Shown in pieces: positions 1-64,000 of a stretch of 64,000 nucleotides of DNA. Under the pieces are notes generated by a model, which was not told the DNA's origin, made no database searches, and was given only the letters and a program-made list of their open reading frames with translations. The stretch lies in contig NZ_JBDHZL010000003.1 of NCBI RefSeq assembly GCF_039811905.1, positions 3,355-67,354 on the forward strand, given 5' to 3'. Every line of letters begins with the position of its first letter. The first letter of the stretch is position 1. Source of the DNA: Nigerium sp. GTDB lineage: Bacteria > Actinomycetota > Actinomycetes > Propionibacteriales > Propionibacteriaceae. A program made the translations under genes and the position numbers.

Positions 1-965
1 GCCGGCGCGGCCGGCGCGCGTCGGGCCTTCACGCGCGTGCGCAGGCGCGGGTCGTTGAGGTCGTTCATCGACTCGCCCACGAGCGTCACGCCGAGCACGG
101 ACAGCACGATGGCGAGGCCGGGGAAGACCGACGTCCACCAGATGCCCGACGTGACGTCGGCCATCGAACGGTTCAGGTCGTAGCCCCACTCGGACGCCGA
201 CGTCGGCTCGATGCCGAAGCCGATGAAGCCCAGGCCGGCCAGCGTCAGGATCGCCTCGGAGGCGTTGAGGGTGAAGATGAGCGGCAGTGTCCGGGTGGCG
301 TTGCGGAACACGTGCCCGAACAGGATGCGCGGGACGCCGACCCCGATCACCTTCGCCGACTCGACGAACGGCTCGGCCTTCAGCCGGATCGTCTCGGCCC
401 GGATCACGCGGAAGTACTGCGGGATGAACACGACCGTGATCGACAGGGCGGCGGACAGGATGCCGCCCCAGGCGTCCGAGCGGCCGCCCGAGATCACGAT
501 CGACATGACGATCGCGAGCAGCAGCGACGGGAACGCGTAGACGGCGTCCGCGATCATCACGGCGAGGCGGTCGAACCAGCCGCCCAGGTAGCCCGACACC
601 AGGCCGAGCAGCACGCCCAGGAACAGCGAGAAGACGACGGCGCAGGCCATGACGGCGACGGCCGTCCGGGTGCCCCAGATCACCCGGCTGAGCACGTCGA
701 ACCCGGCGACGGTCGTGCCGAGCGGGTTGCGCGCGGAGGGCGGCTGCTGGCTGCCGAAGACGCCCGCGGCGTCCGTGGTCTGCGCCCACGAGTAGGGGGC
801 GAGCAGCGGCGCCAACGCGGCCGTGACGAGCAGGATCGCGGTCAGCGTCAGCCCGGCGATCAGCATGCCGCGCTGCAGCCCGTGGCTGCGGCGCAGGTCG
901 GCGACGACCGGCAGCCGCAGGTACCAGGGGTCGCGCGGGTCGGCGAGATGGGCTTGGTCGGCCAT
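1..965 (-). CDS. Peptide/nickel ABC transporter permease (DppC/OppC-like), 3' end runs off window
   Basis: Manually translated from ATG at 965: MADQAHLADPRDPWYLRLPVV..., hydrophobic TM segments, directly downstream of the DppB-like permease. Confidence 0.85.
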   Translation of the reverse strand, partial: MADQAHLADPRDPWYLRLPVVADLRRSHGLQRGMLIAGLTLTAILLVTAALAPLLAPYSWAQTTDAAGVFGSQQPPSARNPLGTTVAGFDVLSRVIWGTRTAVAVMACAVVFSLFLGVLLGLVSGYLGGWFDRLAVMIADAVYAFPSLLLAIVMSIVISGGRSDAWGGILSAALSITVVFIPQYFRVIRAETIRLKAEPFVESAKVIGVGVPRILFGHVFRNATRTLPLIFTLNASEAILTLAGLGFIGFGIEPTSASEWGYDLNRSMADVTSGIWWTSVFPGLAIVLSVLGVTLVGESMNDLNDPRLRTRVKARRAPAAP

Positions 966-968
966 GGG

Positions 969-2087
969 TCAGTACCTCACTCGCGGGTCGATGAGGGCCG
1001 CGACGACGTCGACCACGAAGTTGGTGACGGCCACGATCACGGCCATGAGCATCACGATGCCCTGCACGGCGACGTAGTCGCGGGCGCCCATGTACTGGGC
1101 GAGCATGAAGCCGAGGCCCTTCCACTCGAACGTGGTCTCGGTGAGCACCGCGCCGCCGAGGCTCATCGCGATCTGCATCCCCATCACGGTGATGATCGGG
1201 ATGAGGGCGGGCCGCAGCGCGTGCCGGCGCACGAGGCGCCCCTCTCCGACGCCGCGCGAGCGGGCGGACTCGATGTAGGGGCGCTCCAGGGTGCCGATCA
1301 GGTTCGTCCGGACGAGGCGCAGGAACACCCCGCCCGTCAGCAGGCCCAGCGCGACGCCAGGGAGGATCGCGTGCGAGAGGACGTCCGCGATCAGCGGCAG
1401 GCTGCCGAGGCGGAGGGCGTCCAGCAGGTAGAACGGCGACGGGTTGGTGATCGTGCCCATCGTGATCTCGCCCGAGGTCGAGATGCGTCCCGACACGGGC
1501 AGCCAGCCGAGGTTCACCGAGAAGATCAGCTTCAGCATGAGGCCGATGAAGAAGACGGGGGTCGCGTACCCGAGGATCGCGAAGACGCGCAGGGCGGCGT
1601 CCGGGGCGCGGTCGCGGCGCCGGGCCGCGACCATGCCGAGCGGGACGCCGATCGCCAGCGCGACGATCAGCGAGTAGAGCACGAGCTCGGCGGTCGCCGA
1701 GCCGTACCGCGTGAGGATCTGGGTGACGGGCTGGTTGTCGCTGAACGTCGTCCCGAAGTCGCCCCGCAGCATCCCGGCCAGGTATTCGCCGTACTGCACG
1801 AGCAGCGGCCGGTCGTACCCGGCCTCGTGGACGCGCTGGGCCAGCTGGTCGGGCGTCAGGCGTCCGCCGAGGGCCGCGGTGATCGGGTCGCCCGTGGACC
1901 GCATGAGAAAGAACACCACGGTGACCAAGATGAAGATCGTCGGGAAGATCAGCAGGAACCGGGTCGCCAGGTAGCGGCCAAGATTGCCGCCGCGGACCCG
2001 CGCGGCGGCCGTCCCGGGCATGGCGGCGTCCTGGGACGCCTCGGGTGCCGCGAGGTCGGGCCCCGCGCCGGTGTCGGTGTTCGTCAT
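969..2087 (-). CDS. Peptide ABC transporter permease (DppB/OppB-like)
   Basis: RYLATRFLLIFPTIFILVTVVF N-terminus, EAA loop (YIESARSRGVGE), ETTFEWKGLG, RDYVAVQG, DPRVRY; start set at MTNTD. Confidence 0.92.
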   Translation of the reverse strand: MTNTDTGAGPDLAAPEASQDAAMPGTAAARVRGGNLGRYLATRFLLIFPTIFILVTVVFFLMRSTGDPITAALGGRLTPDQLAQRVHEAGYDRPLLVQYGEYLAGMLRGDFGTTFSDNQPVTQILTRYGSATAELVLYSLIVALAIGVPLGMVAARRRDRAPDAALRVFAILGYATPVFFIGLMLKLIFSVNLGWLPVSGRISTSGEITMGTITNPSPFYLLDALRLGSLPLIADVLSHAILPGVALGLLTGGVFLRLVRTNLIGTLERPYIESARSRGVGEGRLVRRHALRPALIPIITVMGMQIAMSLGGAVLTETTFEWKGLGFMLAQYMGARDYVAVQGIVMLMAVIVAVTNFVVDVVAALIDPRVRY

Positions 2088-2158
2088 GTGCGCTCCGTCG
2101 CTCGGGGGAGGGCGCGGCGCCCCCGGCGAGGATGCCGGGAACGCCGCGCCCTGGGGAT

Positions 2159-3784
2159 CTACTTCGACAGCGTGCCGAGGCGCAGCTTGAACGAGGCGTC
2201 CAGCGTGACCCCCTTCACCGCCGTGCCCGCGATGGCGATCTGCTTGCCCTGCAGCAGCGGCAGGATCGACAGATCGTCGCTCAGGATGCCCTGGAGCTGG
2301 CCGAGCACCTTGTCGCGCTCGGCCTTGTCGGCGGTCGTGGCCTCCTTGCCGAGCAGCGACTGGACCTGCGCGTTGTCGTAGTGGTTCGCCAGGAAGTTGT
2401 TCTTGGCGAAGAACGGCGTCAGGTAGTTGTCGGGATCGGAGTAGTCCGGGAACCAGCCGAGCTGGTAGATCGGGTAGACGTCCTTCGTGCGGTCCTTGGA
2501 GTACTGCACCCACTCGGTCGACTGCAGGTTCACCTTGAACAGGTTCGACGACTCGAGCTGGGTCTTGACCATGGCGTACTCGTCACCCGAGCTGGGGCCG
2601 TAGTGGTCCGGGTTGTACTGGATGTTGAGCGTGACCGGCGTCTGGACGCCCGCCGCCGCGAGCACCTGGCGCGCCTTGTCGGCCGACGGCTTGCCCGACC
2701 CGTCGCCGTACTTCGTCTTGAGCTGGTCGCCCGAGCCCTCCAACCCCTCGGGGATGAAGCTGAACAGGGGCGTGTAGGTGTCCTTGTAGACCTGCGTCGA
2801 GATCGCCTGCCGGTCGACGAGGTTCGCCATCGCCTGCCGGACCGCCTGCGCCTTCTTCGCGTCGGCGCCCGACGCCTTCGCGCCGAACGGCATCGTGTTG
2901 AAGTTGAACACGATGTAGCGCATCTCGCCGCCGGGGCCCTCGTGCACGGTCACCTTGCTGTCGTTGCGCAGCGACGCGATGTCGGTGGCCGACAGGCTGC
3001 GGTGGGCCAGGTCGATGTTGCCCTGCTGGATGTCGAGCTTCATGTTGTTCGCGTCGGCGTAGTACTTCACGTTCACCGGCGACTTCGCCGCGCCCAGCAT
3101 GCCCTGGTAGCCGCCGTTCGGCGTGAGGCTCACGAGCTGGTTCAGGTTGTAGCTGGCGACGTCGTACTGGCCGGCGAACGGCTTGGCCTTGACGAGGCCG
3201 GCGTCCGGCATGACCTTGTCGGCGGGCAGCGACTCCTCGTCGACGATCGGGCCGGCCGGGCTGGAGAGGATCAGCGGCCAGGTCTGGTCGTTGGCACTCT
3301 TGAGGGTGAAGACGACGGTCGTCGGGTCGGGCGCGTCGGTCTTGGCCAGGTTGCCGAGCAGGGACGCCGGCCCGTTCGGGTCGTTGATCTTGAGCTGCCG
3401 GTCGAACGAGAACTTCACGTCGGAGCTCGTCAGATCGTGGCCGTTGGCGAACTTCAGCCCGGGCTTCAGCTTCACGGTGTAGGTGGTCGGGTTCGTGAAC
3501 TCCGCGGACGTCGCGATGTCGGGCTGCGGGGTCTGGTCGGCCGCGCCGGGCGCGGTGTTCACCAGGAACGGGTACACCTGGTTCATCAGGAAGAACGACC
3601 CGTTGTCGTAGCTGCCCGCCGGGTCGAGGGACGTCACCTTGTCGGTCGTGCCGGCCGTCAGCGGCGCCCCCTGGGACGCCCCCGATCCGGCCGTGTTCGT
3701 GGTGGTGGTCTGGGCGCAGCCAGCCGTCAGTGCCACGGCTGCACCCAGGGCGATCAGGACTTTGGTCCGTGGGAAGGGCCTCAT
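2159..3784 (-). CDS. ABC transporter substrate-binding lipoprotein, family 5
   Basis: Lipobox LTAGC, SLDPA, LKPGLKFANGHDLTSSDVKFSF, GWFPDYSDPD. Confidence 0.92.
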   Translation of the reverse strand: MRPFPRTKVLIALGAAVALTAGCAQTTTTNTAGSGASQGAPLTAGTTDKVTSLDPAGSYDNGSFFLMNQVYPFLVNTAPGAADQTPQPDIATSAEFTNPTTYTVKLKPGLKFANGHDLTSSDVKFSFDRQLKINDPNGPASLLGNLAKTDAPDPTTVVFTLKSANDQTWPLILSSPAGPIVDEESLPADKVMPDAGLVKAKPFAGQYDVASYNLNQLVSLTPNGGYQGMLGAAKSPVNVKYYADANNMKLDIQQGNIDLAHRSLSATDIASLRNDSKVTVHEGPGGEMRYIVFNFNTMPFGAKASGADAKKAQAVRQAMANLVDRQAISTQVYKDTYTPLFSFIPEGLEGSGDQLKTKYGDGSGKPSADKARQVLAAAGVQTPVTLNIQYNPDHYGPSSGDEYAMVKTQLESSNLFKVNLQSTEWVQYSKDRTKDVYPIYQLGWFPDYSDPDNYLTPFFAKNNFLANHYDNAQVQSLLGKEATTADKAERDKVLGQLQGILSDDLSILPLLQGKQIAIAGTAVKGVTLDASFKLRLGTLSK

Positions 3785-3927
3785 GGGTTCCTCTCTTGGT
3801 CAGGTGCCGACACCCGTCGTGGGGGCGCTGTCGTGGCGATGGGCACCGATCGTGCTCCGGCTCGTTGCCGGTGTGGTGAAAACTAATGGCCCTGTCAAGG
3901 TTGTGCCTTGATATTCACAGAACGAAA

Positions 3928-3967
3928 CCGCCGGCGTCCGGGCCGACGATGGCCCGGACGCCGGCGG
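3928..3967 (-). terminator. Intrinsic terminator after ldh; stem built from GGCGTCC/GGACGCC pair
   Basis: ccgccggcgtccgggcc-gacgat-ggcccggacgccggcgg, 17-bp perfect stem, followed by tttcgttct on minus strand. Confidence 0.8.
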
Positions 3968-4005
3968 CGTCCGTCAGGAAAAAGGGGTGGGAACCGATCG
4001 ACGGA

Positions 4006-4974
4006 TCAGAACCCGAGCGTGCTCAGCGTGTGCTTCAGCGCGGCGGCCGACGCCTTGAGCTTCACCAACTCCGTGTTGTTCAGCGGGACCTCCAGCACGC
4101 GCTCGATGCCCTTGTTCGACACGATGGAGGGTGCGGACAGGGCGACCCCCGAGACGCCGTAGTAGTCGTCGAGGACGCTGGACAGGGGCAGGATGACATC
4201 CTGATAACGCAGGATCGCCTCGGTGAGCCGGGCCCCGGTGAGGCCGATGGCGTAGTTCGTGGCGCCCTTGCCCTCGATGATCGAGTAGGCGGCGTGCACC
4301 GCGTCGTAGGCCAGCTCGTCGAGGACGTCTTCGCTGAACACTCGCTGGCCCGCCGCGTCCTTCCAATCCAGGATCGGGACGTGCCCGATCTCGGCGTTCG
4401 ACCAGGTCGGGAACTCGGAGTCGCCGTGCTCGCCCATGATCGTGGCGTGCACGTTGGCGAGGCCGACGCCGGCCTTCTGGGCGATCGCCCAGCGCAGCCG
4501 CGACGTGTCGAGCATGGTGCCGGTCGAGAAGACCTGGTTGGCGGGCAGGCCGCTCACCTTCTGGGCGACCACCGTGAGGACGTCACACGGGTTCGTGACG
4601 AGCACGTAGATCGCGTTCGGGGCCTGCTCGAGCAACTGCGGCATCAGGGACTTCATGATGTTCGCGTTGACGCCCGCCAACTCGAGGCGGGTCTGGCCGG
4701 GCTTCTGCCGGGCACCGGCGGTGATGATGACGATGGACGAATCCTTGACGACCTCGATGTCGGCGCCGCCGGTGACGTACGAGGTCGGCGTGAACTGGGT
4801 GCCGTGGGAGAGGTCAGCGACCTCGGCGTCGACCTTTTTCGCATTGATGTCGAACAGGGCGATCTCACGCGCGGAGCCTCGGATCAACGCCGCGTACGCG
4901 AGCGACGAACCGACGGAGCCGGCGCCGATGACGCTGAGCTTCAATGCATTCAGGTCTGGGAGTTGGGTGCTCAT
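4006..4974 (-). CDS. ldh: L-lactate dehydrogenase
   Basis: VIGAGSVG Rossmann motif, [45 protein letters not shown]; leaderless TAGGCT 7 nt before ATG 4974. Confidence 0.95.
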
Positions 4975-5148
4975 GCGGCCCAGCCTAGGGGCTGGACGCG
5001 GGTCGGTGCAGGGGGCCGGGAACAATCAGCGCGACCTTTCCGCGGCGCGCGTCGGCGACCCGTCGGCGACCCATCGGAGGCTGTTTCGGGCGCCTCGCCC
5101 GCGTCGCTGCCGGCTCGTCGCGCGGCGCGATGCGAAGCTGGGAGCATC

Positions 5149-5976
5149 ATGAAGCGAACCTCCCTAGCTTGCGCCAGCGCCGTGTTGCTGCTGGTGGGCG
5201 GCTGCTCCAGCACGAGCACCGCCACCGCGCCTGCGTGGACGCCGACCGAGGCCCCCACGCCGACGATCACCCCGTCTTCCCCGGCCCCCTCCGTGAGCCC
5301 CACCGAGACGGCGTCCCCCACCGCGTCCCCGTCGTCGGCGTCCGCGAGCCCGGGTGCGGATTCTGCGTCCCCGTCGCCGTCCGGGTCGGCGTCCCACTCG
5401 CCAAGCGGTTCGGCGACGCCGGCGGCGTCCGCGGCGCCCCGCGCGGCCACGGACGCCGGGTCGGTCGGCACGATGCCGTCCGGCTTCCGGCTGCCCGGCG
5501 GCCTGCGGGCCGACAACACGCTGCAGAACCTCGACCCGTGCCTCACGGTGACGGGCAAGACGGACGCCCTCGCGCAGCGCTCGGCGTCCCGGTTCAGCAG
5601 GACCGCGAACGCCCGCGCGTTCACCGGCAACGGCGGCATCGTCTTCGCCAGCGAGGACGCAGCCCGCGCCTTCATGCGCGACGCGATCGCCAAGTCGGAC
5701 GCCTGCCGCACGACCCGGACGCGGACGGGCGTGGGGCTGCTGGCGTCCCGCACGGCACCCACCAACGCGGCCTGGGACCGGTCGGTCTTCACCGCCAGCC
5801 AGGTGCCGAACGCGAGCGCCAACGGGCAGCCGTGGGGCCAGGGGACGCTCATCGTCCGCAAGGGCCAGTACGTCGCGGTCTACAACAAGGCGGGCATGAC
5901 CGACCGCGCGCCGGCCGGCCCGTCGAAGGAGGCCGTCGCGCAGGTGACCGAGATCCTGAAGGGCCTCGCTAGCTGA
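5149..5976 (+). CDS. Lipoprotein with Ser/Pro/Thr-rich linker and C-terminal globular domain, function unknown
   Basis: MKRTSLACASAVLLLVGGC lipobox, then PSASPS-rich linker. Confidence 0.75.
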   Translation: MKRTSLACASAVLLLVGGCSSTSTATAPAWTPTEAPTPTITPSSPAPSVSPTETASPTASPSSASASPGADSASPSPSGSASHSPSGSATPAASAAPRAATDAGSVGTMPSGFRLPGGLRADNTLQNLDPCLTVTGKTDALAQRSASRFSRTANARAFTGNGGIVFASEDAARAFMRDAIAKSDACRTTRTRTGVGLLASRTAPTNAAWDRSVFTASQVPNASANGQPWGQGTLIVRKGQYVAVYNKAGMTDRAPAGPSKEAVAQVTEILKGLAS

Positions 5977-6622
5977 GGCCGGCCGCCGTCGCGATGACGA
6001 CGAGCTGCACGCGATCGCGCGCGCCCAGCTTCAGCATGATGTGGCTGACGTGGGTGCGCGCGGTCGCCTTCGTGATCCAGAGCCGCTCGGCGATCTCGGC
6101 GTTGTTGAGGCCCTGACCCACGAGGCGCAGCACCTCGCGCTCCCGGTCGGTGAGGTCGCCCAGCTTGGGGTGCGTCGCCGGCTGCTCGCGCGGACGCGTC
6201 GCGAACGCGGCGATCACCCGCCGGGTCACCGTCGGCGACAGCAGCGACTCGCCGGCGGCCGCTGCGCGGATCGCGCGGACGATGTCGTCGGGATCGGATT
6301 CCTTCACCAGGAACCCCGCCGCCCCGCCCTCGAGGGCGGCGAACACGTACTCGTCGAGCTCGAACGTGGTCAGCATCACCACGTGGACGCCCGCCAGCGC
6401 GTCGTCGGCGGTGATCGCGCGGAGGGCGCCGAGGCCGTCCAGTTCGGGCATGCGGATGTCGAGCAGCACGACGTCCGGTCGCTCGCGTCGCACGAGGGCG
6501 AGCGCCGCGGCGCCGTCGTCAGCCTCGCCGACCAGTTCGAGGTCGGGCTCGGTGCGGATGAGGGCGCGCAGCCCCATCCGCACGAGCGCCTGATCGTCGG
6601 CGACGACGACGCGGATGGTCAC
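5969..6622 (-). CDS. NarL/LuxR-family response regulator
   Basis: IRVVVADDQALVR, VLLDIRMP, LTTF, GFLVK, LTDREREVLRLVGQGLNNAEIA HTH; GTG start overlaps kinase stop. Confidence 0.93.
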   Translation of the reverse strand: MTIRVVVADDQALVRMGLRALIRTEPDLELVGEADDGAAALALVRRERPDVVLLDIRMPELDGLGALRAITADDALAGVHVVMLTTFELDEYVFAALEGGAAGFLVKESDPDDIVRAIRAAAAGESLLSPTVTRRVIAAFATRPREQPATHPKLGDLTDREREVLRLVGQGLNNAEIAERLWITKATARTHVSHIMLKLGARDRVQLVVIATAAGLS

Positions 6623-7800: not shown

Positions 7801-7848
7801 GGACCCAGCCTACGAAGAGGTGGGCCGCCGGGCATCGGGCGACCGGCG

Positions 7849-7864
7849 TACGTCAGCGTGCGTA
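7849..7864. promoter_or_regulatory. Candidate response-regulator site in divergent intergenic region
   Basis: TACG-TCAGCGTG-CGTA inverted ends between kinase start and SHOCT gene. Confidence 0.3.
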
Positions 7865-7925
7865 GACGGGGCGCGCAGGTGTCGTCCGGGGGCCGATGGC
7901 CGCGACGTCGGCGCCGGGAACGCTG

Positions 7926-15845: not shown

Positions 15846-16781
15846 ATGAGCCGGGAGGACCGCAACGCGCGCGTCGCGGTCACCGTCTTCCCGATCCTCG
15901 TGCTGGCCGCCGCGCTGTTCGGCTTCTTCTTCGCGCCGACCGCCCGCGTGCTGACGCCGCACGTCAACACGCTGCTGATCGTCATCATGTTCGGGATGGG
16001 CCTGACGCTGACCCTGCCCGACTTCAAGCTCGTGCTGACCAGGCCGCTGCCGATCCTCATCGGGGTGATCGCCCAGTACGCGATCATGCCGCTCGCGGGC
16101 TGGGCCGTGGCCCGCGTCCTGGGGCTGCCGCCCGACCTGGCGGCCGGGCTCATCCTCGGCGGGTGCGCGCCGGGCGGCACGGCGTCCAACGTGGTCAGCT
16201 ACCTCGCGAAGGCGGACACGGCCCTGTCGGTGACGATGACGTCCATCTCGACGCTGATCGCGCCGATCATGACGCCCCTGCTCACGCTGTGGCTGGCCGG
16301 CGCCTACATGCCCGTGGACGGGCTCGGGATGGCGATGAGCATCGTGCAGATCGTGCTCGTCCCGGTGTTGGGCGGGCTGCTGCTGCGCCTGCTGCTGCCG
16401 CGGCTGACTGAGCCGCTGCTGCCCGCGATGCCGTGGGTGTCGGTCATCGCGATCTCGGGCGTCGTGGCGGCCGTGGTGTCGGGGTCGGCGTCCCGGGTGC
16501 TGCTCGCGGGCCCGATCGTCTTCCTGGCGGTCGTGCTGCACAACGGCATCGGCTACCTGCTGGGCTACTGGTCCGGACGCCTGACCGGCCAGACCGTCCG
16601 GGCCAGCCGGACGATCGCGATCGAGGTCGGCATGCAGAACTCCGGGCTGGCCGCGGGGCTGGCGTCCCTGTACTTCAACCCGACCGCCGCGCTGCCCGGG
16701 GCCGTGTTCTCGATCTGGCACAACCTGTCGGGCGCGCTGCTGGCGATGTTCTTCCGGAGGTCCGGCGAGCTCCACCGGTGA
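15846..16781 (+). CDS. Bile acid:sodium symporter (BASS) family transporter
   Basis: IMFGMGLTL, CAPGGTASNV, TIAIEVGMQNSGLA, PGAVFSIWHNLSG. Confidence 0.92.
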   Translation: MSREDRNARVAVTVFPILVLAAALFGFFFAPTARVLTPHVNTLLIVIMFGMGLTLTLPDFKLVLTRPLPILIGVIAQYAIMPLAGWAVARVLGLPPDLAAGLILGGCAPGGTASNVVSYLAKADTALSVTMTSISTLIAPIMTPLLTLWLAGAYMPVDGLGMAMSIVQIVLVPVLGGLLLRLLLPRLTEPLLPAMPWVSVIAISGVVAAVVSGSASRVLLAGPIVFLAVVLHNGIGYLLGYWSGRLTGQTVRASRTIAIEVGMQNSGLAAGLASLYFNPTAALPGAVFSIWHNLSGALLAMFFRRSGELHR

Positions 16782-17606: not shown

Positions 17607-17635
17607 GAGGGGACGCCGCTGTGCGGCGTCCCCTC
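17607..17635. terminator. Terminator between convergent genes; stem is GGACGCC/GGCGTCC pair
   Basis: gaggggacgccgc-tgt-gcggcgtcccctc, 13-bp perfect stem. Confidence 0.75.
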
Positions 17636-25566: not shown

Positions 25567-25601
25567 GGACGCCGCCCGCCGCTCAGCGGCGGGCGGCGTC
25601 C
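25567..25601. terminator. Bidirectional terminator; stem is GGACGCC/GGCGTCC pair
   Basis: ggacgccgcccgccgc-tca-gcggcgggcggcgtcc, 16-bp stem; loop is the stop codon of the convergent ORF. Confidence 0.75.
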
Positions 25602-26047: not shown

Positions 26048-26081
26048 ACAGGGACGCCGCCCGCGCGGGCGGCGTCCCTGT
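26048..26081 (-). terminator. Intrinsic terminator after dcuA; stem is GGACGCC/GGCGTCC pair
   Basis: acagggacgccgcccg-cg-cgggcggcgtccctgt followed by ttttctg on minus strand. Confidence 0.8.
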
Positions 26082-36418: not shown

Positions 36419-37410
36419 GCGCCGCAGGAACGCCGATCCCGCCGATCGACTTCGCGACGGCGCAGGCGTCCGGGCGCCGGGTGACCCCGGCCGGCCCGCG
36501 CCTGTCGGGGCCGGAGATGGCCGAGATCGTCGCGGGCCTGCAGGCCGCGGCGGAGGCGTCCGTCGGGCCGGTGGCCGAGGTGACCCGGCTGGGCGCCGAC
36601 GCGCCCGGGCCCATGCTGGTCGTCGACCGGGCGAACTGGGTGGACGCCAACTGCGCGATGGTCTCCCGCCTGCTCGCCGAGGCCGGCGGGGGCGTCGGCC
36701 CGCGGCCGGCCGGGCTGACGGGACGCCTCGAGGCGCACGCCAACGGCGTCCAGCTGGGTGGGGCGATGGCCTTCCTGGCGACGCGGGTACTCGGCCAGTA
36801 CCTGCCGTTCGCGGCCGAGCCGGCGCTGCTGATCGTGGCGCCGAACGTGGCCGCGGTCGAGCGGGCGCTCGGCGTCGACCGGCCCGACTTCCGGCTGTGG
36901 GTGTGCCTGCACGAGCAGACGCACCGGCTGCAGTTCGCCCGCGCACCCTGGCTGCGCGACTACCTCGTGCGGGCCACCGGGCAGTTGCTGTCCGCGCCGC
37001 AGACGTTCGCGCCGCAGGCGCTGTTGCGCGGCGGCTCTCTCGTGGACGCCGTGACGAGCCCCGAGCAGCGGGGCACCTTCGACCGGATCAGCGGCGTGAT
37101 GGCCCTGCTGGAGGGCTACGCCGACGTGATGATGGACCGGGTCGGCCCCGACGTCGTCCCGACGGTCGCCGAGATCCGGCGCCGCTTCGAGCGCCGGCGG
37201 TCGCGCGGGGGGCTGTACGCGGCCCTGAACCGCCTCATCGGCATGGATCTGAAGCTCGCCCAGTACCGCGACGGCGCCGCGTTCTGCACGGCCGTCATCG
37301 GCCGGGTCGGCGTCGACGGACTCAACGCCGTCTACGAGGGGCCCGGGCTGCTGCCGAGCCTGGACGAGATCCACGACCCGCAGCGCTGGGTGGCGCGCGT
37401 CCACGGCTGA
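36415..37410 (+). CDS. Zinc-dependent metalloprotease (DUF2342-like)
   Basis: WVCLHEQTH, MALLEGYAD, KLAQYRDG; GTG overlaps dacB stop. Confidence 0.88.
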   Translation: MSAAGTPIPPIDFATAQASGRRVTPAGPRLSGPEMAEIVAGLQAAAEASVGPVAEVTRLGADAPGPMLVVDRANWVDANCAMVSRLLAEAGGGVGPRPAGLTGRLEAHANGVQLGGAMAFLATRVLGQYLPFAAEPALLIVAPNVAAVERALGVDRPDFRLWVCLHEQTHRLQFARAPWLRDYLVRATGQLLSAPQTFAPQALLRGGSLVDAVTSPEQRGTFDRISGVMALLEGYADVMMDRVGPDVVPTVAEIRRRFERRRSRGGLYAALNRLIGMDLKLAQYRDGAAFCTAVIGRVGVDGLNAVYEGPGLLPSLDEIHDPQRWVARVHG

Positions 37411-38471
37411 TGGCCCGCCGCGCGCTCACGGACGCCTGCCTCGCCGTCGTCCAGGCCGTCCGGGCTCTTCCGGCGGCGCCTTGGGCGGTGGCCTGCTCCG
37501 GCGGCGCCGACTCCCTGGCCCTCGCGTGGGCGGCCGCGCACGTCGCGTCCCGCCGCGGGACGCCGTGCCGCGCGGTCGTCGTCGACCACGGCCTTCAACC
37601 GGGTTCGGACGCCGTCGCCGCGGGCGTCGCGGCGCGGTTGGCCGCGTTGCCCGACCCGGGCGGGCGGGCCGGGGGAACGCTGTCGCTGCCGGCGGCGGTC
37701 GTCCGGGTGAGCGTTCCGGACGCCGGCGACGGGCCGGAGGCGTCCGCGCGGCGGGCCCGGTATGCGGCGCTGGAGGCGGCGTCCGCGGGCCGGGGGGCGC
37801 CGGAGGGCGAGCGGGTCCTGCTCGGGCACACCCGCTCCGACCAGGCCGAGACCGTGCTGCTCGGCCTGGCGCGTGGCTCGGGGACGCGGTCGCTGGCGGG
37901 CATGCCGGCCGAGCGGGGGGTGTTCGTCCGGCCGCTGCTCGGGCTCGACCGGGCCGTCACCGCGGCCGCCTGCGCCGACCTGGGCCTCACGCCCTGGACC
38001 GACCCGCACAACGCCGAGCGCCGCTTCGCGCGCGTCCGCGTCCGGGAGTCGGTGCTGCCGCTCCTGGAGGCCGAGCTCGGGCCGGGGGTCGCGCAGGCCC
38101 TCGTCCGGACGGCGGCCCTCGCCCGCGCGGACGCCGACCTCCTCGACTCCCTCGCGGCGGGCGTCCTGGCGGCCGCGCCGCGGCGGGAGGCGTCCGACCG
38201 CGGGCCGATCCCCGCCGAACTGGACGCCGCCTGGCTGGCCGGTCTGCCGCCGGCCCTGCGCGATCGGGCGCTGCGGGCCTGGCTCGCGGAGCGGGGGTAC
38301 GCGGAGGCGTCCTTCGGGCACGTCGCGGCGGTCGCCGCGCTCGTGACCGGCTGGCACGGGCAGAAGGGCGCCGACGTGCCCGGCGCACGTGTGGTCAGGA
38401 GGAACGGATGGCTGGGCACGCGTCCGGACGCCGGCGCGGACGACTACGATGCCAGCCGTGGACGCTGCTGA
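37410..38471 (+). CDS. tilS: tRNA(Ile)-lysidine synthetase
   Basis: ACSGGADSLAL, VDHGLQ, LGHTRSDQAETVLL, RPLL, DPHN. Confidence 0.95.
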   Translation: MARRALTDACLAVVQAVRALPAAPWAVACSGGADSLALAWAAAHVASRRGTPCRAVVVDHGLQPGSDAVAAGVAARLAALPDPGGRAGGTLSLPAAVVRVSVPDAGDGPEASARRARYAALEAASAGRGAPEGERVLLGHTRSDQAETVLLGLARGSGTRSLAGMPAERGVFVRPLLGLDRAVTAAACADLGLTPWTDPHNAERRFARVRVRESVLPLLEAELGPGVAQALVRTAALARADADLLDSLAAGVLAAAPRREASDRGPIPAELDAAWLAGLPPALRDRALRAWLAERGYAEASFGHVAAVAALVTGWHGQKGADVPGARVVRRNGWLGTRPDAGADDYDASRGRC

Positions 38472-39009
38472 CATCCCCGGTGATCTGACACGAGTGCTCT
38501 ATACCAAGGACGACGTCGCCGCCCGGTTGGCCGAGGTGGCCGCCGAGATCGACCGCGACTACGCGAGCAAGGATCTGCTGTGCGTGGGCGTCCTGAACGG
38601 GGCGATCATGGTGATGGCCGACCTGACCCGCGCCCTCCACTGTCACGTGGAGATGGACTGGATGGCGATCTCCTCCTACGGGTCCGGCACGCAGAGTTCG
38701 GGCGTCGTGCGCATCCTCAAAGACCTCAGCGTCGACCTGGAGGATCGCCACGTGCTCGTGGTGGAGGACATCATCGACACCGGGCTCACGCTGTCGTACC
38801 TGATGCAGAACCTGCGCTCGCGGCGTCCGGCGAGCCTGGAGATCATGACCGCGTTCCGCAAGCCCGAGGCGAAGGCGAGCGACGTGCACGTCAAATACGT
38901 GGGCTTCGACATCCCCGACGAGTTCGTCGTCGGCTACGGGCTCGACTACGCGGGCCGCTACCGCAACCTCACCGACGTCGGCACGCTCGCCCCGCACGTC
39001 TACAGCTGA
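38458..39009 (+). CDS. hpt: Hypoxanthine phosphoribosyltransferase
   Basis: VGVLNGA, ISSYG, LVVEDIIDTGLTL, FVVGYGLDY; GTG 38458 lies 7 nt after TACGAT (leaderless), ATG 38449 alternative. Confidence 0.96.
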   Translation: MDAADIPGDLTRVLYTKDDVAARLAEVAAEIDRDYASKDLLCVGVLNGAIMVMADLTRALHCHVEMDWMAISSYGSGTQSSGVVRILKDLSVDLEDRHVLVVEDIIDTGLTLSYLMQNLRSRRPASLEIMTAFRKPEAKASDVHVKYVGFDIPDEFVVGYGLDYAGRYRNLTDVGTLAPHVYS

Positions 39010-39127: not shown

Positions 39128-41530
<2,403 letters not shown>

Positions 41531-41531
41531 C

Positions 41532-42095
41532 ATGGCGATCGATCACCCCCGTATCGAGGCGGCCGTCCGGGAGTTCCTGATCGGCATCGGGGAAGACCCG
41601 GACCGGGAGGGGCTCGTCGCCACGCCCGGCCGCGTCGCCCGCGCCTGCGAGGAGCTGTTCGCCGGCATGGAGACCGACGCCGCGAGCGTGCTCGCCACGA
41701 CGTTCGACCTCGAGCACGAGGAGATGGTGCTCGTGAAAGACATCGAGCTGGTGAGCACCTGCGAGCACCACCTGCTGCCGTTCACCGGCGTGGCGCACGT
41801 CGCCTACATCCCGTCGCGGGACGGCCGGGTGACCGGCCTGTCGAAGCTCGCGCGCCTCGTGGACTGCTTCGCCCGGCGTCCGCAGGTGCAGGAGCGCCTG
41901 ACCGGCCAGATCGCGGACGCCCTCGTGGAGCACCTCAAGGCCCAGGGCGTCATGGTCGTCATCGAGGCCGAGCATCAGTGCATGACGATGCGAGGCGTCC
42001 GGAAGCCGGGGTCGAAGACCGTGACCAGCGCCGTCCGGGGTGGCCTGCGCAACCCGGCGACGCGCGCCGAGGCCATGAGCCTCATCATCGGCTGA
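41532..42095 (+). CDS. folE: GTP cyclohydrolase I
   Basis: [37 protein letters not shown]. Confidence 0.97.
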
Positions 42096-49443: not shown

Positions 49444-49477
49444 AGGACGCCCACGGCCCATCGGCCGGGGGCGTCCT
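49444..49477 (+). terminator. Terminator after clpC; outer stem is GGACGCC/GGCGTCC pair
   Basis: aggacgccc-a-cggcc-catc-ggccg-g-gggcgtcct followed by ggcttttct. Confidence 0.78.
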
Positions 49478-54522: not shown

Positions 54523-57274
<2,752 letters not shown>

Positions 57275-57278
<4 letters not shown>

Positions 57279-58456
57279 GCCCCGACAACCTGTCTGCGGC
57301 GTCCGGCCGGGCGCCGGACGCGCACGAGCGCACCGCCGGGGGTTCCGGCGGCGAAGAAGGTCGGCGCGACCTCGATCTGCTGCCCAAGGCGCACCTCCAC
57401 CTGCACTTCACCGGGTCGATGAGCGTCGACACGCTGCGCGACGTCGCGGCCATCGCGGGCCTCGACATGCCCGACTCCCTGCTGGACACGATCGCGCTTG
57501 AACTGCCTCCCGACAAGCGGGGATGGTTCCGCTTCCAGCACCTGTACGAGACCGCCCGGCGAGCCGTGCGCACCGAGGAGGCGATGCGGCTCGTCATGCG
57601 CCGCGCCGTCGAGGACGACGCCCGCGAGGGCTCCCGGCGCCTGGAGTTGCAGATCGACCCGTCCGGCTACGCGCCCTACGTCGGCGGGCTCTCCCGCGCC
57701 CTGGACATCGCGATCGACGAGGCGCGGCAGGCGTCCGAGGCGACCGGGGTGAGCGTCGCGCTGATCGTCGCGGCGTCCCGGCGCCGGCACCCGCTGGACG
57801 CCCGCACCCTCGCCCGCCTCGCCGCCCGCTACGTGGGTGACGGCCCGGGGGAGGTCGTCGGGTTCGGGCTCAGCAACGACGAGCGCGCCGGCGACACCGC
57901 CGAGTGGGGTCACGCGTTCCGGCTCGCCGAGCGGGCCGGGCTGGCGAGCGTGCCGCACGGGGGCGAGCTGCTGGGGCCCTCGCACATCCGGCGGGTCATC
58001 GAGCACCTCGACCCGGTGCGGCTGGGGCACGGCGTCCGGGCGTCGGAGGACCCGGCGCTGGTCGCCGAGATCGTCCGGCGCGGCATCGCCCTGGAGCTCT
58101 GCCCGACGTCGAACGTGAACATGGGCGTGTTCGCCGAGCAGGCGAACGTGCCGCTGCGGCCGCTCGTGGACGCCGGCGTCCGCATCGCGCTGTCGGCCGA
58201 CGATCCGCTGCTGTTCCTGTCGCGGCTGACCGACCAGTACCGCGTCGCGCGGGACGTCCACGGCTTCTCGGACGCCGAGCTGGCCGGGCTCGCGAAGGCG
58301 AGCTTCGCGGCGTCCACGGCCGGAGACGACGACAAGCGCCGCTGGGACGCCGAGGTGGACGCCTGGCTCGCCGGCGGCCCGAGCGAACCGCAGGCGCCGC
58401 CTGAGGGCGGCGTCCGGGCTGCCCGCATTTCGACAACGCCGACGGACGCCGGGTAA
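57275..58456 (+). CDS. Adenosine deaminase-family protein; no canonical start codon upstream of the metal-binding motif
   Basis: LPKAHLHLHFTGSM, PHGGE, RLGHG, ELCPTSN, SADDP; start shown is a CTG overlapping the proC stop and is uncertain. Confidence 0.85.
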
Positions 58457-58558
58457 GATCTGGTTCTTGGGCTGCCCAACGCGGTGCCCGACAAGATCTA
58501 CAACAACTATTGGCAATCCCCGATCCGAGCGCCGGGTCGGAGGCAGAGGGGTCGACAC

Positions 58559-58660
58559 GTGGGTTCGGTCATCAAGAAGCGCCGCAAGCGGATGGCGAAG
58601 AAGAAGCACCGCAAGCTGCTGAAGAAGACGCGTATTCAGCGCCGCCGCGCCGGCAAGTAG
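58559..58660 (+). CDS. 30S ribosomal protein bS22 (AURKAIP1/COX24-domain peptide)
   Basis: GTG-start [33 protein letters not shown]; too short for the ORF track. Confidence 0.95.
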
Positions 58661-58677
58661 GCCGGGGCGCACCCGTC

Positions 58678-58923
58678 GTGAGCGCTGAGCTACGCGTCGT
58701 CGTGCTCGTGCGCGACGGGTGCCACCTGTGCGAGGAGGCGCTGCGCATCATCGACGCGGTCTGCCGGGACGCGGAGGCGTCCTGGCAGGCCGTTGACGTC
58801 GATGGCGATGCGTCTCTTCGCGCTCGCTACACCGATCACGTCCCGGTGACGTTCGTCGACGGGGAGCAGTTGTCCTTGTGGTTCGTGGACGCGGACGCCC
58901 TGCGCGCCGCGCTCGCCGGGTAG
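58678..58923 (+). CDS. Glutaredoxin-like protein (DUF836)
   Basis: RDGCHLCE, VDVD, DHVPVTFVDG. Confidence 0.88.
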   Translation: MSAELRVVVLVRDGCHLCEEALRIIDAVCRDAEASWQAVDVDGDASLRARYTDHVPVTFVDGEQLSLWFVDADALRAALAG

Positions 58924-59014
58924 CGTCCATGCTCGCCGTGCCCAGTGCGCCGGGGCTGCGGCCGTCACGTACAGTAGGGGCGATCACGCGCCTCGACCGT
59001 CCCCAAGGAGAACC

Positions 59015-59662
59015 ATGCAGCCCACCGTCGTGCATGTCTGCCGACACGGTCAGGTCGAGAACCCCGACCACGTCCTCTACGGGCGATCCCCGGGCTACCA
59101 CCTCTCCGAGCTTGGGTTTCGCATGGCCGACCAGCTGGGTGAGTACTTCGCCGACGTCCCGGTGACGCACCTGCGCTGCTCCCCGCTGGAGCGGGCGCGC
59201 GAGACGATGGCCCCGATCGCGGCGAACTTCCCGGGGCAGGAGATCACGATCGATCCGCGGCTCATCGAGGCCGCGAACGCGCTCGAGGGGCAGAGCTTCG
59301 GCCGCTACAACCAGCGGCTGCTGCTGCCGAAGAACCTGCGGCATCTGTGGAACCCGCTGCGGCCGAGCTGGGGCGAGCCCTACACGACGATCCGCGACCG
59401 CATGCTCGCGGCGATCAGGGACGCGGCGGCGGCCACGCCGGGCGGCCAGGCCGTCGTCGTCAGCCATCAGTTGCCGATCTACATGGCTCGTCTGGCCACC
59501 GAGGGCCGCCGCCTGCAGCACAACCCGGCGACGCGTGAGTGCCGGCTGGCGTCCGTGACGTCGTTCACCTTCCACGGCGACCACATCGTCCGGGTCGACT
59601 ATGCCGAGCCGGCGGCGTCGCTGTACCCGCCGAAGAAGAAGATGTTCCGTCCGGGGATGTGA
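59015..59662 (+). CDS. Histidine phosphatase family protein
   Basis: CRHGQVENP, SPLERARET, VVVSHQLP. Confidence 0.92.
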   Translation: MQPTVVHVCRHGQVENPDHVLYGRSPGYHLSELGFRMADQLGEYFADVPVTHLRCSPLERARETMAPIAANFPGQEITIDPRLIEAANALEGQSFGRYNQRLLLPKNLRHLWNPLRPSWGEPYTTIRDRMLAAIRDAAAATPGGQAVVVSHQLPIYMARLATEGRRLQHNPATRECRLASVTSFTFHGDHIVRVDYAEPAASLYPPKKKMFRPGM

Positions 59663-60219
59663 GCGTGCGTCGCCTCGTCCCGTCACTGCTCGCCGCCTGC
59701 CTGCTGCTGGCCGGCTGCGGGGCGCGTCCGTCCGGTGAGGGCGGGTTCGTGTCGGGCGATGGGGCCCTCACCCGCGTCCCGGTCGCGCAGCGGTCGGACG
59801 CCCCGGCGATCGCCGGGCCGACCCTCGGCGGCGGCTCGTTCGACGCGTCCCGGCACCGGGGGAAGGTGATCGTCTACAACGTGTGGGGCTCGTGGTGCGC
59901 GCCCTGCCGCAAGGAGGCGCCGGCGCTCGTCGCGGCGTCCGAGCGTACGAAGGAGCAGGCGGTCTTCGTCGGCATCAACACCCGCGACCTCGACCAGGCG
60001 CCGGCGGAGGCGTTCGTCCGGGCGTTCGGCGTCCCGTACGCGAACGTGTTCGATCCACAAGGCCAGTTGCTGCTGAAGTTCGGCAGCGAGCTGCCGCCGT
60101 CGGCGATCCCGAGCACGATCGTGGTCGATCCGCAGGGGCGCGTCGCGGCGCGTATTCTCGGCGAGACCACGGAGGCGACGCTCGTCGGCCTCGTGGACGA
60201 CGTGGCGAAGGGGGAGTGA
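59659..60219 (+). CDS. resA: TlpA/ResA thiol-disulfide oxidoreductase lipoprotein
   Basis: Lipobox LLAGC, NVWGSWCAPCR, AIPSTIV. Confidence 0.9.
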   Translation: MSVRRLVPSLLAACLLLAGCGARPSGEGGFVSGDGALTRVPVAQRSDAPAIAGPTLGGGSFDASRHRGKVIVYNVWGSWCAPCRKEAPALVAASERTKEQAVFVGINTRDLDQAPAEAFVRAFGVPYANVFDPQGQLLLKFGSELPPSAIPSTIVVDPQGRVAARILGETTEATLVGLVDDVAKGE

Positions 60220-60989
60220 TGACGCCGCTCGACATCGGGGCCTGGGCCCAGGAGGCCGTCGGCGGCTCGATGCTGCTCGCGATGCCCGTGGCGCTGCTCG
60301 CCGGGCTCGTGTCGTTCTTCAGCCCGTGCGTCCTGCCGCTGCTCCCGGGCTATCTGTCGTACGCGACCGGGCTGGCGGCGTCCCAGATCGTCTCGGGGGA
60401 GACGCGGGCGGCCCGCGGCCGCATCGTGGCCGGCACGAGCCTGTTCGTGGCCGGTTTCGCCGTGGTGTTCGTGAGCTCGGGCGCCCTCTTCGGCGGGCTG
60501 GGCAGCCTGCTGAAGACGTACCAGTCGGTGATCAACGTGGTCGTGGGCGGGCTGTCGATCGTGCTGGGGCTGATCTTCGCCGACGTCCTGAGGTTCGGAC
60601 GCCGCACCGTGCGGCTCAACAGCGCTCCCCGCGTCGGGGTGGCGAGCGCGCCGCTGCTCGGGCTCGTGTTCGGGCTGGGCTGGACGCCGTGCATCGGCCC
60701 CGCGCTGTCGGTGGTGCTGAACCTGGCGCTGAACGAGGCGACGGCCGTCCGCGGGGCGATCCTCGCGCTGGTGTACGCCCTGGGGCTCGGGCTGCCCTTC
60801 CTGGCGTTCGGGCTCGCGTTCACGAAGCTGTCGGGCACGCTCGCCTGGGTGCGGGCGCGCGGGCCGCTGCTGCAGCGCGTCGGCGGGGCGTTGATGATCG
60901 CCGTCGGCATCCTGCTCGTCACGGGGTGGTGGGACGTGCTGATGGCCTACGCCCGCTCGTGGGCGTCCGGCTGGGGTCTGCCGATCTGA
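60219..60989 (+). CDS. ccdA: Cytochrome c biogenesis protein CcdA
   Basis: SFFSPCVLPLLPGY, GWTPCIGP. Confidence 0.94.
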   Translation: MTPLDIGAWAQEAVGGSMLLAMPVALLAGLVSFFSPCVLPLLPGYLSYATGLAASQIVSGETRAARGRIVAGTSLFVAGFAVVFVSSGALFGGLGSLLKTYQSVINVVVGGLSIVLGLIFADVLRFGRRTVRLNSAPRVGVASAPLLGLVFGLGWTPCIGPALSVVLNLALNEATAVRGAILALVYALGLGLPFLAFGLAFTKLSGTLAWVRARGPLLQRVGGALMIAVGILLVTGWWDVLMAYARSWASGWGLPI

Positions 60990-62566: not shown

Positions 62567-63474
62567 CCGCGGACGTCATGGGCTACTACTCGTTCCTCGC
62601 GATGGTCACCTCGGCGGTGATCTACCTGGTCGCGTTCGCGGCGTTCAGCGCCGAGTGGGCGAGCGCGCGCAACCTGGACGCCGGGGGCCACGAGCCCGAC
62701 GCGGCGCGGGAGAGCGCCGACCGCCTGCGCGTCGACAAGTACGGGCGCATCGGCCTCGCGCTCACGTGCGTGGGGCTGCTCAGCCACGTCGCCGGGGTGG
62801 TGCTCCGTGGGGTGGCCGGACGCCGGGCCCCCTGGGGCAACATGTACGAGTTCGTGACCGTGTCGCTCGCGTTCGCGGCGGCGGCCATGCTCGTGCTCGC
62901 GATGCGCCGCGGGCAGCGCTGGCTCGGCCTGCCGACGACGCTGCTTCTGACGATCGGGCAGGGCCTGGCCGTGACGGTCTTCTACGTCGACGTCGCCCCG
63001 CTGGTGCCGGCGCTGCACTCGGTGTGGTTCGTCGTCCACATCGTCGCGGCGTGTGCGTCGGGGGCGATGTTCAACCTGGGCGCGATCGCGTCCGTCCTCT
63101 ACCTGATCCGGACGCGCGCGGAGGCGCGCGGCGGCGTCCGGGGTTATCTGGCGCGCGTGCCCGACTCGCGCGCGCTCGATCGCTTCGCTTACCGCGTGCA
63201 CGCGTTCGCGTTCCCGCTGTGGACGTTCACGATCGCCGCCGGCTCGATCTGGGCCGAGTACGCGTGGGGGCGCTACTGGGGGTGGGACCCGAAGGAGACG
63301 TGTTCCCTGGTCACGTGGGTGGTCTACGCGGCCTACCTGCACGCGCGCGCCACCGCCGGGTGGCAGGGGCGTCCGGCCGCGTGGCTGGCGGTCGTCGGCG
63401 TGGTGAGCTTCTGGTTCAACTTCGTCGGCATCAACCTGCTCGTGAGCGGCCTGCATTCCTACGCGGGGATCTGA
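62563..63474 (+). CDS. ccsB: Cytochrome c biogenesis protein CcsB/ResC
   Basis: PWGNMYEF, PALHSVWFVVH, WAEYAWGRYWGWDPKET, GLHSYA. Confidence 0.94.
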   Translation: MTADVMGYYSFLAMVTSAVIYLVAFAAFSAEWASARNLDAGGHEPDAARESADRLRVDKYGRIGLALTCVGLLSHVAGVVLRGVAGRRAPWGNMYEFVTVSLAFAAAAMLVLAMRRGQRWLGLPTTLLLTIGQGLAVTVFYVDVAPLVPALHSVWFVVHIVAACASGAMFNLGAIASVLYLIRTRAEARGGVRGYLARVPDSRALDRFAYRVHAFAFPLWTFTIAAGSIWAEYAWGRYWGWDPKETCSLVTWVVYAAYLHARATAGWQGRPAAWLAVVGVVSFWFNFVGINLLVSGLHSYAGI

Positions 63475-63510
63475 GCGGAGCCGCTATCCCCGCGTGAAAG
63501 AATGCGGTTT

Positions 63511-64000
63511 ATGCAGCATTTTGATCTGTGCATCATCGGCTCCGGTTCGGGTAATTCCCTGATCGACGAGCGCCTCGACGACCAGACGATCGCGCTGGTC
63601 GACGACGGCCGCTGGTTCGGCGGGACCTGCCTGAACGCCGGCTGCATCCCCACGAAGATGCTCGCGCTCCCGGCCGACGTCTGCCGGACGCCCGAGCTGG
63701 GCGCCCGCGTCAACGTCGCCGTCGACCCGCCGCGCGTCGACTGGCCCGGGCTGCGCGACCGGGTCTTCGGCCGCACGGACGGCATCTCGCAGGCGGGCGA
63801 GCGGTGGCGCGAGCAGGCGTCCAACGTGACGCTGTTCCGCGAGACCGCGGAGTTCGTCGGCGAGAAGACGCTGCGTGTCGGCGAGGAGACGATCACGGCC
63901 GACCAGTTCGTGATCGCGGCCGGCTCGCGGCCGCGGGTGCCCGACCTGCCGGGCATGGACGACCCGGCGCTGACGGGCCGGCTGCACACGTCCGACACGA
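63511..64000 (+). CDS. mtr: Mycothione reductase, partial (runs off window)
   Basis: FDLCIIGSGSGNS, GGTCLNAGCIPTKM, IAAGSRP. Confidence 0.88.
   Translation, partial: MQHFDLCIIGSGSGNSLIDERLDDQTIALVDDGRWFGGTCLNAGCIPTKMLALPADVCRTPELGARVNVAVDPPRVDWPGLRDRVFGRTDGISQAGERWREQASNVTLFRETAEFVGEKTLRVGEETITADQFVIAAGSRPRVPDLPGMDDPALTGRLHTSDT

Follow-up and report, generated by a model that had tools for sequence, protein, structure and literature searches.

A hyper-abundant, clade-restricted DNA heptamer in Nigerium-like Propionibacteriaceae

Words iterated throughout a genome are rare, and their study has led in different directions: to uptake specificity for the DNA uptake sequences (DUS) of Neisseriaceae (GCCGTCTGAA core) and the uptake signal sequences (USS) of Pasteurellaceae (AAGTGCGGT core), and to recombination control for Chi, while the highly iterated palindrome HIP1 of cyanobacteria (GCGATCGC), whose role was long obscure, is still under study. 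In Neisseria, the minor pilin ComP is the specific DUS receptor. DUS, USS and HIP1 are all enriched more than 100-fold. Polarity characterizes other words, as about 75% of the Chi sites of Escherichia coli and over 90% of the FtsK-orienting polar sequences (KOPS) are co-oriented with replication. HIP1 is recognised by the methylases DmtA and DmtC, and its spacing is described as quasi-periodic in one report (10.64898/2026.06.24.733823). Here we describe the heptamer GGCGTCC (GGACGCC on the opposite strand), which is iterated along a 64,000-nt stretch of DNA from Nigerium sp. (contig NZ_JBDHZL010000003.1, positions 3,355-67,354; G+C content 72.0%), hereafter called the window. We know of no genome-wide iterated word described in Actinomycetota. 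A full-text literature search found neither GGCGTCC/GGACGCC or related words as a genomic motif nor uptake sequences in Actinobacteria, in agreement with the initial annotation of the window, whose author was aware of no such motif in this lineage.

The window harbours 309 copies of the heptamer, 159 as GGCGTCC (+) and 150 as GGACGCC (-), which amounts to 4.8 copies per kb, or a mean interval of 207 bases. No other heptamer of the window matches it in raw count or in z-score; the next commonest words either overlap it (CGGCGTC, 249 copies; GCGTCCG, 205) or are composed purely of G and C (at most 175). Markov models of order 0 to 3 predict 39, 49, 41 and 67 copies, respectively. The z-scores of 42 (order-2 model) and 30 (order-3 model) are far above those of other well-populated words, making GGCGTCC the single outlier heptamer. 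Its density is even along the window, with 10 to 26 copies per 4 kb. The initial annotation had estimated some 48 copies in bases 1-10,000 and about 11 of a control word, CGCGTCC/GGACGCG; our recounts gave 51 (27 + 24) and 13 (6 + 7). It had also proposed that composition predicts about 6 copies per 10 kb, in line with the order-0 value for 64 kb, and its counts for tilS, mutY, a DUF1731/TIGR01777-type gene and nifJ (10, 9, 10 and 14) are close to those obtained here (12, 10, 10 and 16).

The signal sits in DNA rather than in protein, as had been surmised from the first reading of the sequence. Coding DNA contains 273 copies, versus 85.6 +/- 7.8 after synonymous-codon shuffling within genes (maximum 112 in 300 shuffles). 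The observed-to-expected ratio (O/E) is thus 3.2 rather than near 1, and codon-order shuffling lowers the expectation to 56 +/- 7. With 37 copies in 7.8 kb, the density of non-coding DNA equals that of coding DNA. Coding regions, 55 in number, were called with our own heuristic based on third-position G+C, which averages ~0.96; at least one call, that at 14177-15649, is doubtful (no Pfam match and a second-position G+C of 0.62), and the Markov and cross-genome results are independent of gene calls. All six reading frames, in each of which the motif had initially been noticed, are enriched over the synonymous null: 2.2- to 5.5-fold for the three frames with preferred codons (GCG-TCC, GAC-GCC and GGC-GTC), 1.9-fold for xGG-ACG-CCx, and as much as 13.8- and 12.7-fold for the two frames that force the rare codons CGT or GGA. 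Sizeable proportions of these rare codons, 22 of the 106 CGT (21%) and 21 of the 73 GGA codons (29%) of the window, are located inside the heptamer. The rare-codon readings quoted initially, CGG-CGT-CCG in hpt, folE and ftsH and GGA-CGC in a bile-acid/sodium symporter family gene, are present in those genes (Table 1).

Such a word might arise as a by-product of codon, dipeptide or context-dependent mutation bias at very high G+C, without any recognising machinery. The three preferred-codon frames do hold most copies, and synonymous shuffling does not keep codon-pair context. However, this explanation is contradicted by the equal density in non-coding DNA and by the 13-14-fold excess in the rare-codon frames, as well as by the comparisons with other genomes presented below: in 80 listed control loci, which resemble the window in G+C and codon usage, O/E is near 1, and the sister lineage L090, with 71.5% G+C, has an O/E of 0.7 relative to its own synonymous null. 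Words that differ from the heptamer by one base are at background, and the outgroup differs from it at all seven positions. We therefore regard a mere compositional by-product as very improbable.

The unit is sharply bounded. Flanking positions carry at most 0.17 bit each, with a weak preference for C at -1 (58%) and G at +1 (51%), indicating that the bare heptamer is the whole unit and not part of a longer repeat. Dispersed repeats of the repetitive extragenic palindrome or miniature inverted-repeat transposable element type are contradicted by the same data, as no conserved sequence extends past the core. The 21 one-mismatch neighbours sum to ~790 occurrences versus ~730 expected, i.e. background; individually they range from 0.47 to 1.78 times expectation and from 0.31 to 1.87 times their frequency in control genomes, and transitions show no pattern of their own. 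Depletion is absent from all six neighbours of the deamination type, those reached by a transition (0.97-1.78 times expectation), and none is distinct relative to control genomes, as illustrated by GGTGTCC (10 observed versus 9.6 expected), GGCGTTC (33 versus 33.5), GGCGTCT (21 versus 18), AGCGTCC (17 versus 17.6) and GGCATCC (18 versus 15). The initial annotation had considered that embedded GRCGYC or GACGC sites might drive a methylation- or repair-based process. These sites show no enrichment beyond the heptamer's own share: GGCGCC (224 versus 211) and GACGTC (184 versus 171) are near expectation.

The excess of CCWGG linked to Dcm and Vsr in E. coli is a precedent for a short-word excess caused at the DNA level by recognition-dependent fixation bias, and in this respect GGCGTCC resembles it. 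Very short patch (VSP) repair, however, leaves a depleted T-containing neighbour and involves a methylated palindrome, whereas no neighbour of GGCGTCC is depleted and the enriched word itself carries a T. A VSP-repair or deamination model was rejected on the basis of the neighbour words, the GGCGCC and GACGTC counts and the outgroup states described below.

We then placed the host and its relatives. TilS homologues assign the window to Propionibacteriaceae, refining the initial identification of an actinobacterium; the nearest named relative is Nigerium massiliense (68% identical in TilS and, at the amino-acid level, 75% identical across nine syntenic genes), followed by Propionicimonas. GGCGTCC is the top heptamer at the corresponding loci of N. 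massiliense (59 copies versus 14.1 expected), L082 and L083 (85 versus 10.8 and 80 versus 9.8), L084 (86 versus 13.5), L087 (48 versus 7.6) and L089, a Nigerium sp. metagenome-assembled genome (MAG; 76 versus 11.4). O/E values in N. massiliense and the four further related lineages thus range from 4.2 to 8.1. These lineages and the window group into a single clade, within which TilS, Hpt, FtsH and FolE are together 73-81% identical. A metagenome scan with TilS yielded two loci.

In the sister, Propionicimonas-like clade, O/E reaches 4.7 in L088 and is 1.5, 1.5, 2.4 and 2.9 in L090 to L093. As controls we used at least 80 regions surrounding ftsH, drawn from other actinobacteria and from a small number of further phyla (FtsH identity 52-74%). 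Among the matches listed (n = 80), O/E ranges from 0.2 to 2.7, does not exceed 2.0 in loci over 10 kb, and GGCGTCC is never the top heptamer. Relative to control loci of similar G+C totalling 238 kb, it was the most clade-enriched of 3,596 heptamers (5.9-fold), and the enrichment of its one-mismatch neighbours remained within the general spread. The survey of relatives therefore shows that the heptamer is restricted to one clade, being weak or absent in the sister clade.

Codon alignments of nine syntenic genes from seven genomes revealed how the sites evolve. Most of them, 83 of 120 distinct sites, were found in a single lineage. A site is shared at the same column by another clade member in 34% of cases, versus 15% for other heptamers with one A/T and 22% for all other heptamers. 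Sharing with L090, a relative in which the motif is not enriched, is 0%, for a baseline of 10-18%, indicating that the sites arose within the clade and have been kept since. At the positions of clade sites, L090 is mismatched at each of the seven bases in 37-58% of cases, with no dominant single change and no C-to-T excess. Such a spread is incompatible with a mutational hotspot acting in one step and speaks for recognition of all seven bases together.

Copies favour weakly constrained, less conserved protein positions: three-codon peptide windows are identical to those of L090 in 24% of cases at the motif and in 35% elsewhere (p = 0.004). The genes tilS, mutY and add have 10-12 copies per kb; several strongly conserved genes have few or none (0 in ldh/mdh and ppa, 1.6 per kb in clpC). 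A RibD_C gene and a glyoxalase-like gene also have 0 copies, and over the nine aligned genes density and gene conservation are not correlated (Spearman -0.03).

We next considered the orientation of the copies. Along most of the window the cumulative GC skew is rising, and the tilS-ftsH-fol cluster is co-oriented with replication in actinobacteria, as on the Mycobacterium tuberculosis map; because of both, the + strand was taken as leading. On this basis the two orientations are split 51:49 in the window (159 versus 150), and 337 versus 326 over six clade loci (156 kb), bearing out the strand balance noted initially; the absence of replication polarity argues against Chi or KOPS. A Chi-like word would act on a helicase-nuclease, AdnAB or RecBCD, marking self DNA and switching degradation to recombination. 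GGCGTCC has the general profile of Chi, KOPS and architecture-imparting sequences, being short, asymmetric, specific to a lineage and in excess on the core genome. Nevertheless, it has no bias towards the presumed leading strand, inverted pairs and equal orientations are not expected of a one-sided signal, and its density is 10-50 times higher than that of Chi or KOPS. The response of AdnAB to Chi is stated to be open in one paper, which also argues that this enzyme may be Chi-independent (PMC5314763). Altogether, a Chi-like function appears distinctly unlikely.

Spacing is near-exponential (coefficient of variation 1.14), with gaps of up to 1.5 kb, no helical or regular phasing, and a mild excess of copy pairs 20-50 bases apart. 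These features bear on the idea that the word is bound by an abundant, clade-specific nucleoid-associated or chromosome-organising protein, and that selection keeps its density high and even. The even density, the independence from orientation, the presence of copies in both coding and non-coding DNA and the maintenance of sites would all suit such a protein. Known sequence-specific nucleoid proteins, however, have tens to hundreds of sites rather than ~5 per kb, the near-random spacing with long gaps and no phasing is not what would be expected, most sites turn over between genera, and there is no candidate protein. We consider this explanation unlikely.

Five intergenic inverted pairs of the heptamer form strong hairpins (-32 to -50 kcal/mol, z -5.5 to -6.8; Table 1). 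All five are found at gene 3' ends, and a U-run follows three of them. In non-coding DNA, the density is 9.2 copies per kb within 80 bases downstream of stop codons, versus 3.1 per kb in the same span upstream of start codons.

Taken together, these results require a process in which the heptamer is recognised in full, irrespective of orientation and frame, and which operates genome-wide, has lasted through genus-level divergence in one clade and is weak or lacking in the neighbouring one. On all sequence-level criteria open to testing, the anatomy of the heptamer fits that of uptake signal sequences. Like DUS and USS, GGCGTCC is non-palindromic and equally frequent in both orientations; it occurs in every coding frame and in non-coding DNA, at weakly constrained protein positions; its inverted pairs form terminator stems; and it is common to related genera and weak or missing in neighbouring clades, while a dialect differing by one base may exist elsewhere. 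Of the two labels proposed initially, DUS-like or HIP-like, the former is supported by the clade restriction, the maintenance of sites with turnover, the preference for less conserved positions and the terminator pairs. The latter fits poorly, given the lack of palindromy and the near-exponential spacing of the copies.

We thus tentatively favour the possibility that GGCGTCC, like DUS and USS, confers specificity on DNA uptake or transformation and has been spread by molecular drive. In such a scheme, a lineage-specific word would be recognised as a whole heptamer by a DNA-handling machine that acts on the cell's own kind of DNA, is blind to orientation and prefers word-bearing DNA. Fragments carrying the word would be taken up and recombined more often, so that mutations creating it would spread and those destroying it would be lost. 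Such a fixation bias, by molecular drive or by weak genome-wide selection for density, could hold about 5 copies per kb wherever the sequence tolerates them, and copies would build up in weakly constrained codons, in non-coding DNA and, pairwise, in terminator stems. That the recogniser is an uptake system, and that the host is competent at all, we only infer.

A number of observations weigh against this interpretation. Unlike DUS and USS, the word has 7 bases rather than 9-12 and occurs at ~4.8 instead of ~1 copy per kb, about five times more densely; its enrichment is 6-8-fold, or 3-fold over the codon null, rather than over 100-fold; and its host is an actinobacterium without known competence. 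Our full-text literature search found no report of natural transformation in Propionibacteriaceae, the two co-mentions being metagenome surveys. Pfam searches revealed no competence, pilus, receptor, methyltransferase or restriction gene within the 64-kb window, and no competence or pilin gene was found in the 21-kb pieces of relatives either. Among 148 listed differences between the window and four metagenome strains (at most 40 per comparison), two fall on motif bases for 6.1 expected, only a trend (Poisson P = 0.057), although in the direction anticipated under constraint. Each of the two removes a copy from a single strain, and the motif is created by none of the 148. If the words of Streptomyces, Kribbella, Nocardioides and Micromonospora presented below share the same process, a phylum-wide housekeeping function would be more economical than competence. 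Lastly, counts from viral contigs say little about depletion in mobile DNA; we scanned these contigs using three copies within ~80 bases as a query, masking the cluster responsible for each match before counting. Mild to moderate enrichment was found in two genuine phage fragments, L108, which has tail genes (18 versus 3.6), and L178, which has portal and capsid genes (21 versus 7.4). In no viral locus of at least 5 kb, among the at least 120 matches listed and with phage hosts not identified, is the heptamer top-ranked, and no phage among them approaches the density of the host clade. A toxin-antitoxin region of the window (49498-50245) has 0 copies in ~750 bp.

Second to a DUS/USS-like signal, we rank a HIP1-like process. 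The heptamer would be recognised by an orphan or restriction-modification-associated methyltransferase, for instance one that installs N6-methyladenine on one strand at GGACGCC, or by a repair or nicking enzyme, and biased repair, gene conversion or selection for methylated sites would raise its frequency. Sites of type IIG, IIL and III enzymes are similar in size and shape to this short, asymmetric word of seven bases, which has one A on one of its strands. The patchy distribution among relatives and the shifts of specificity by one or two bases between lineages, reminiscent of those of methyltransferases, would agree with this proposal. Like HIP1, GGCGTCC is hyper-abundant, lineage-restricted, independent of codon usage and kept at orthologous positions; maintenance above the neutral rate is also reported for HIP1 (10.64898/2026.06.24.733823). 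On the other hand, GGCGTCC differs from HIP1 in being asymmetric, in its near-exponential rather than quasi-periodic spacing and in having no known methylase, no methyltransferase gene being present within the window. Neighbours that deamination would produce are not depleted, the embedded GGCGCC and GACGTC occur about as often as expected, and the sites were assembled by changes at all seven positions. In addition, genomes usually avoid the recognition sites of restriction systems rather than accumulate them. We deem this process conceivable but rather doubtful; the probability that is left after all these readings belongs to mechanisms not yet imagined.

To extend the comparison, we applied the same synonymous-shuffle test to related words in other lineages, using top words only, which entails a possible selection effect. 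GGCATCC/GGATGCC, one base from GGCGTCC, is 2-5-fold above the synonymous null in ftsH loci of Microbacteriaceae (L037, L039, L036, L026, L027 and L041) and in L086; in Microbacteriaceae the frame with the rare GCA codon is enriched 15-20-fold. It may be a dialect of the same phenomenon, resembling DUS dialects. CGGCATAC is found in 16 copies versus ~1 expected in Humibacillus xanthopallidus (L060), and GGCGTAC in 79 versus 21.5 in Nocardioides (L012), Kribbella (L017) and Micromonospora (L031), with a ~9-fold excess in GTA-codon frames. In Streptomyces (L007, L008, L010 and L034), GCCGTAC and CCGTACG show a 2.3-fold excess, again with every frame enriched. GGCGTCC, GGCATCC, GGCGTAC and CGGCATAC share the skeleton GGC-R-T-M-C, and for all four every frame is enriched, most strongly where rare codons are forced. 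It is imaginable, though not likely, that GGCGTCC represents one dialect of a widespread actinobacterial system in which each lineage has its own 7-8-base GGC-R-T-M-C word. If so, the words would be read by a single conserved DNA-recognising machine that changes its specificity from lineage to lineage; this machine could serve uptake or transfer, or mark self DNA for repair or defence.

As a separate observation, GGCGATC/CGATCGC is the top DNA-level heptamer in loci of Solirubrobacterales MAGs (L054, L056, L063, L072 and L073; e.g. 50 versus 17). It corresponds to the core of the HIP1 palindrome, here in another phylum.

GGCGTCC joins the genome-wide iterated words; it is not a proven member of the DUS/USS family. 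Should it serve as an uptake signal, no earlier case would be known from a Gram-positive lineage of high G+C, and bacteria living in wastewater, anaerobic digesters and dairy would have to undergo natural transformation that has so far escaped notice. Because the heptamer is sharply defined and present in a named, sequenced species, N. massiliense, it is directly amenable to experiments. It visibly shapes the protein sequences and the rare-codon usage of the clade, and it constitutes a strong taxon marker for metagenome binning and for spotting foreign DNA in these genomes.

Table 1. Positions in the window of copies and copy pairs of the heptamer discussed in the text (a dot indicates no assigned strand)
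Feature	Positions	Strand	Remarks
Three copies (+, -, +) downstream of ldh/mdh	3933..3972	-	Two copies form an 18-bp stem, then UUU; -46 kcal/mol, z = -6.6
Bile-acid/sodium symporter family gene (Pfam), GGA-CGC-CTG	16575..16583	+	Rare Gly codon GGA
Inverted-pair hairpin, convergent FMN reductase gene/unnamed gene	17611..17631	.	-32.5 kcal/mol, z = -5.5
Inverted pair GGACGCC...GGCGTCC, convergent BCCT transporter gene/next gene	25567..25601	.	16-bp stem; -50 kcal/mol, z = -6.0; terminator-like
Inverted-pair hairpin then U-run, downstream of dcuA/B-type transporter gene	26052..26077	-	-36 kcal/mol, z = -6.8; intrinsic-terminator-like
tilS (Pfam)	37410..38471	+	12 copies, 11.3 per kb; fast-evolving, weakly constrained, high density
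hpt codons 110-112, CGG-CGT-CCG	38821..38829	+	Heptamer read via rare Arg codon CGT
ftsH codons 605-607, CGG-CGT-CCG	40997..41005	+	Rare CGT codon
folE codons 115-117, CGG-CGT-CCG	41874..41882	+	Rare CGT codon
Inverted-pair hairpin then U-run, downstream of clpC	49445..49476	+	-34 kcal/mol, z = -6.0

The gene content of the window is that of an ordinary core genome, and the gene names proposed initially agree with Pfam. It includes genes for an oligopeptide ABC transporter, ldh/mdh, a two-component system, a GH31 glycosidase, pyruvate:ferredoxin oxidoreductase (nifJ), BCCT and DcuA/B transporters, a 3-methyladenine glycosylase, ppa, the tilS-hpt-ftsH-folE-folP-folB-folK cluster, clpC, a PIN toxin, mutY, disA, radA, asd, proC, add and cytochrome c biogenesis genes. 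Upstream of clpC, an 842-bp gap of lower G+C (46099-46940; 0.64) probably holds an lsr2 gene missed by the gene caller, since all relatives have lsr2, of 108-114 codons, at the matching position. A search of the whole window against Rfam at gathering thresholds gave no match. The tRNA-Ile(GAT) reported by ARAGORN at 14997-15072 is probably a false call; this segment is G+C-rich and coding-like, lies inside long overlapping open reading frames and has no Rfam tRNA.

Near-identical DNA is present in metagenomes from wastewater, activated sludge, anaerobic digesters, food fermentation and dairy. The four metagenome strains (X1, X4, X12 and X20), compared over stretches 27001-47000, 5001-9400, 9401-13800 and 56001-60400, differ from the window at ~0.5-1% of positions. 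A T in the window for a C in the strain is the commonest class of difference in the first of these stretches (21-22 per run) and is among the commonest, not always first, in the three 4.4-kb stretches. In the viral contigs L213 and L208, 9-12 copies of the heptamer occur within ~500 bases of one ~890-codon gene (positions ~500-1000), which represents a local, repeat-like concentration and not contig-wide enrichment.

GGWCC, an AvaII/SinI-type site, is ~2-fold rarer per kb in the window and in the clade loci L082, L089 and L088 than in control actinobacterial loci, and heptamers containing it are the most clade-depleted words (0.19-0.23-fold). Part of its depletion in the Markov analyses is an artefact, because the motif inflates GGAC in the expectation; its scarcity may reflect restriction avoidance. 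Finally, two segments, 29669-30335 (intergenic, upstream of a DUF2207 gene) and 58500-58646, the former without an Rfam match and the latter without one in the whole-window search at gathering thresholds, have 6-20 times the depth of their neighbours in four metagenome assemblies, where many different contig continuations begin at 30215-30247 and ~58559. A 12-bp inverted repeat, GACGTTCTCCAC...GTGGAGAACGTC, is located in the same intergenic region as the former. Each of the two segments may be a short multi-copy or widely conserved element.

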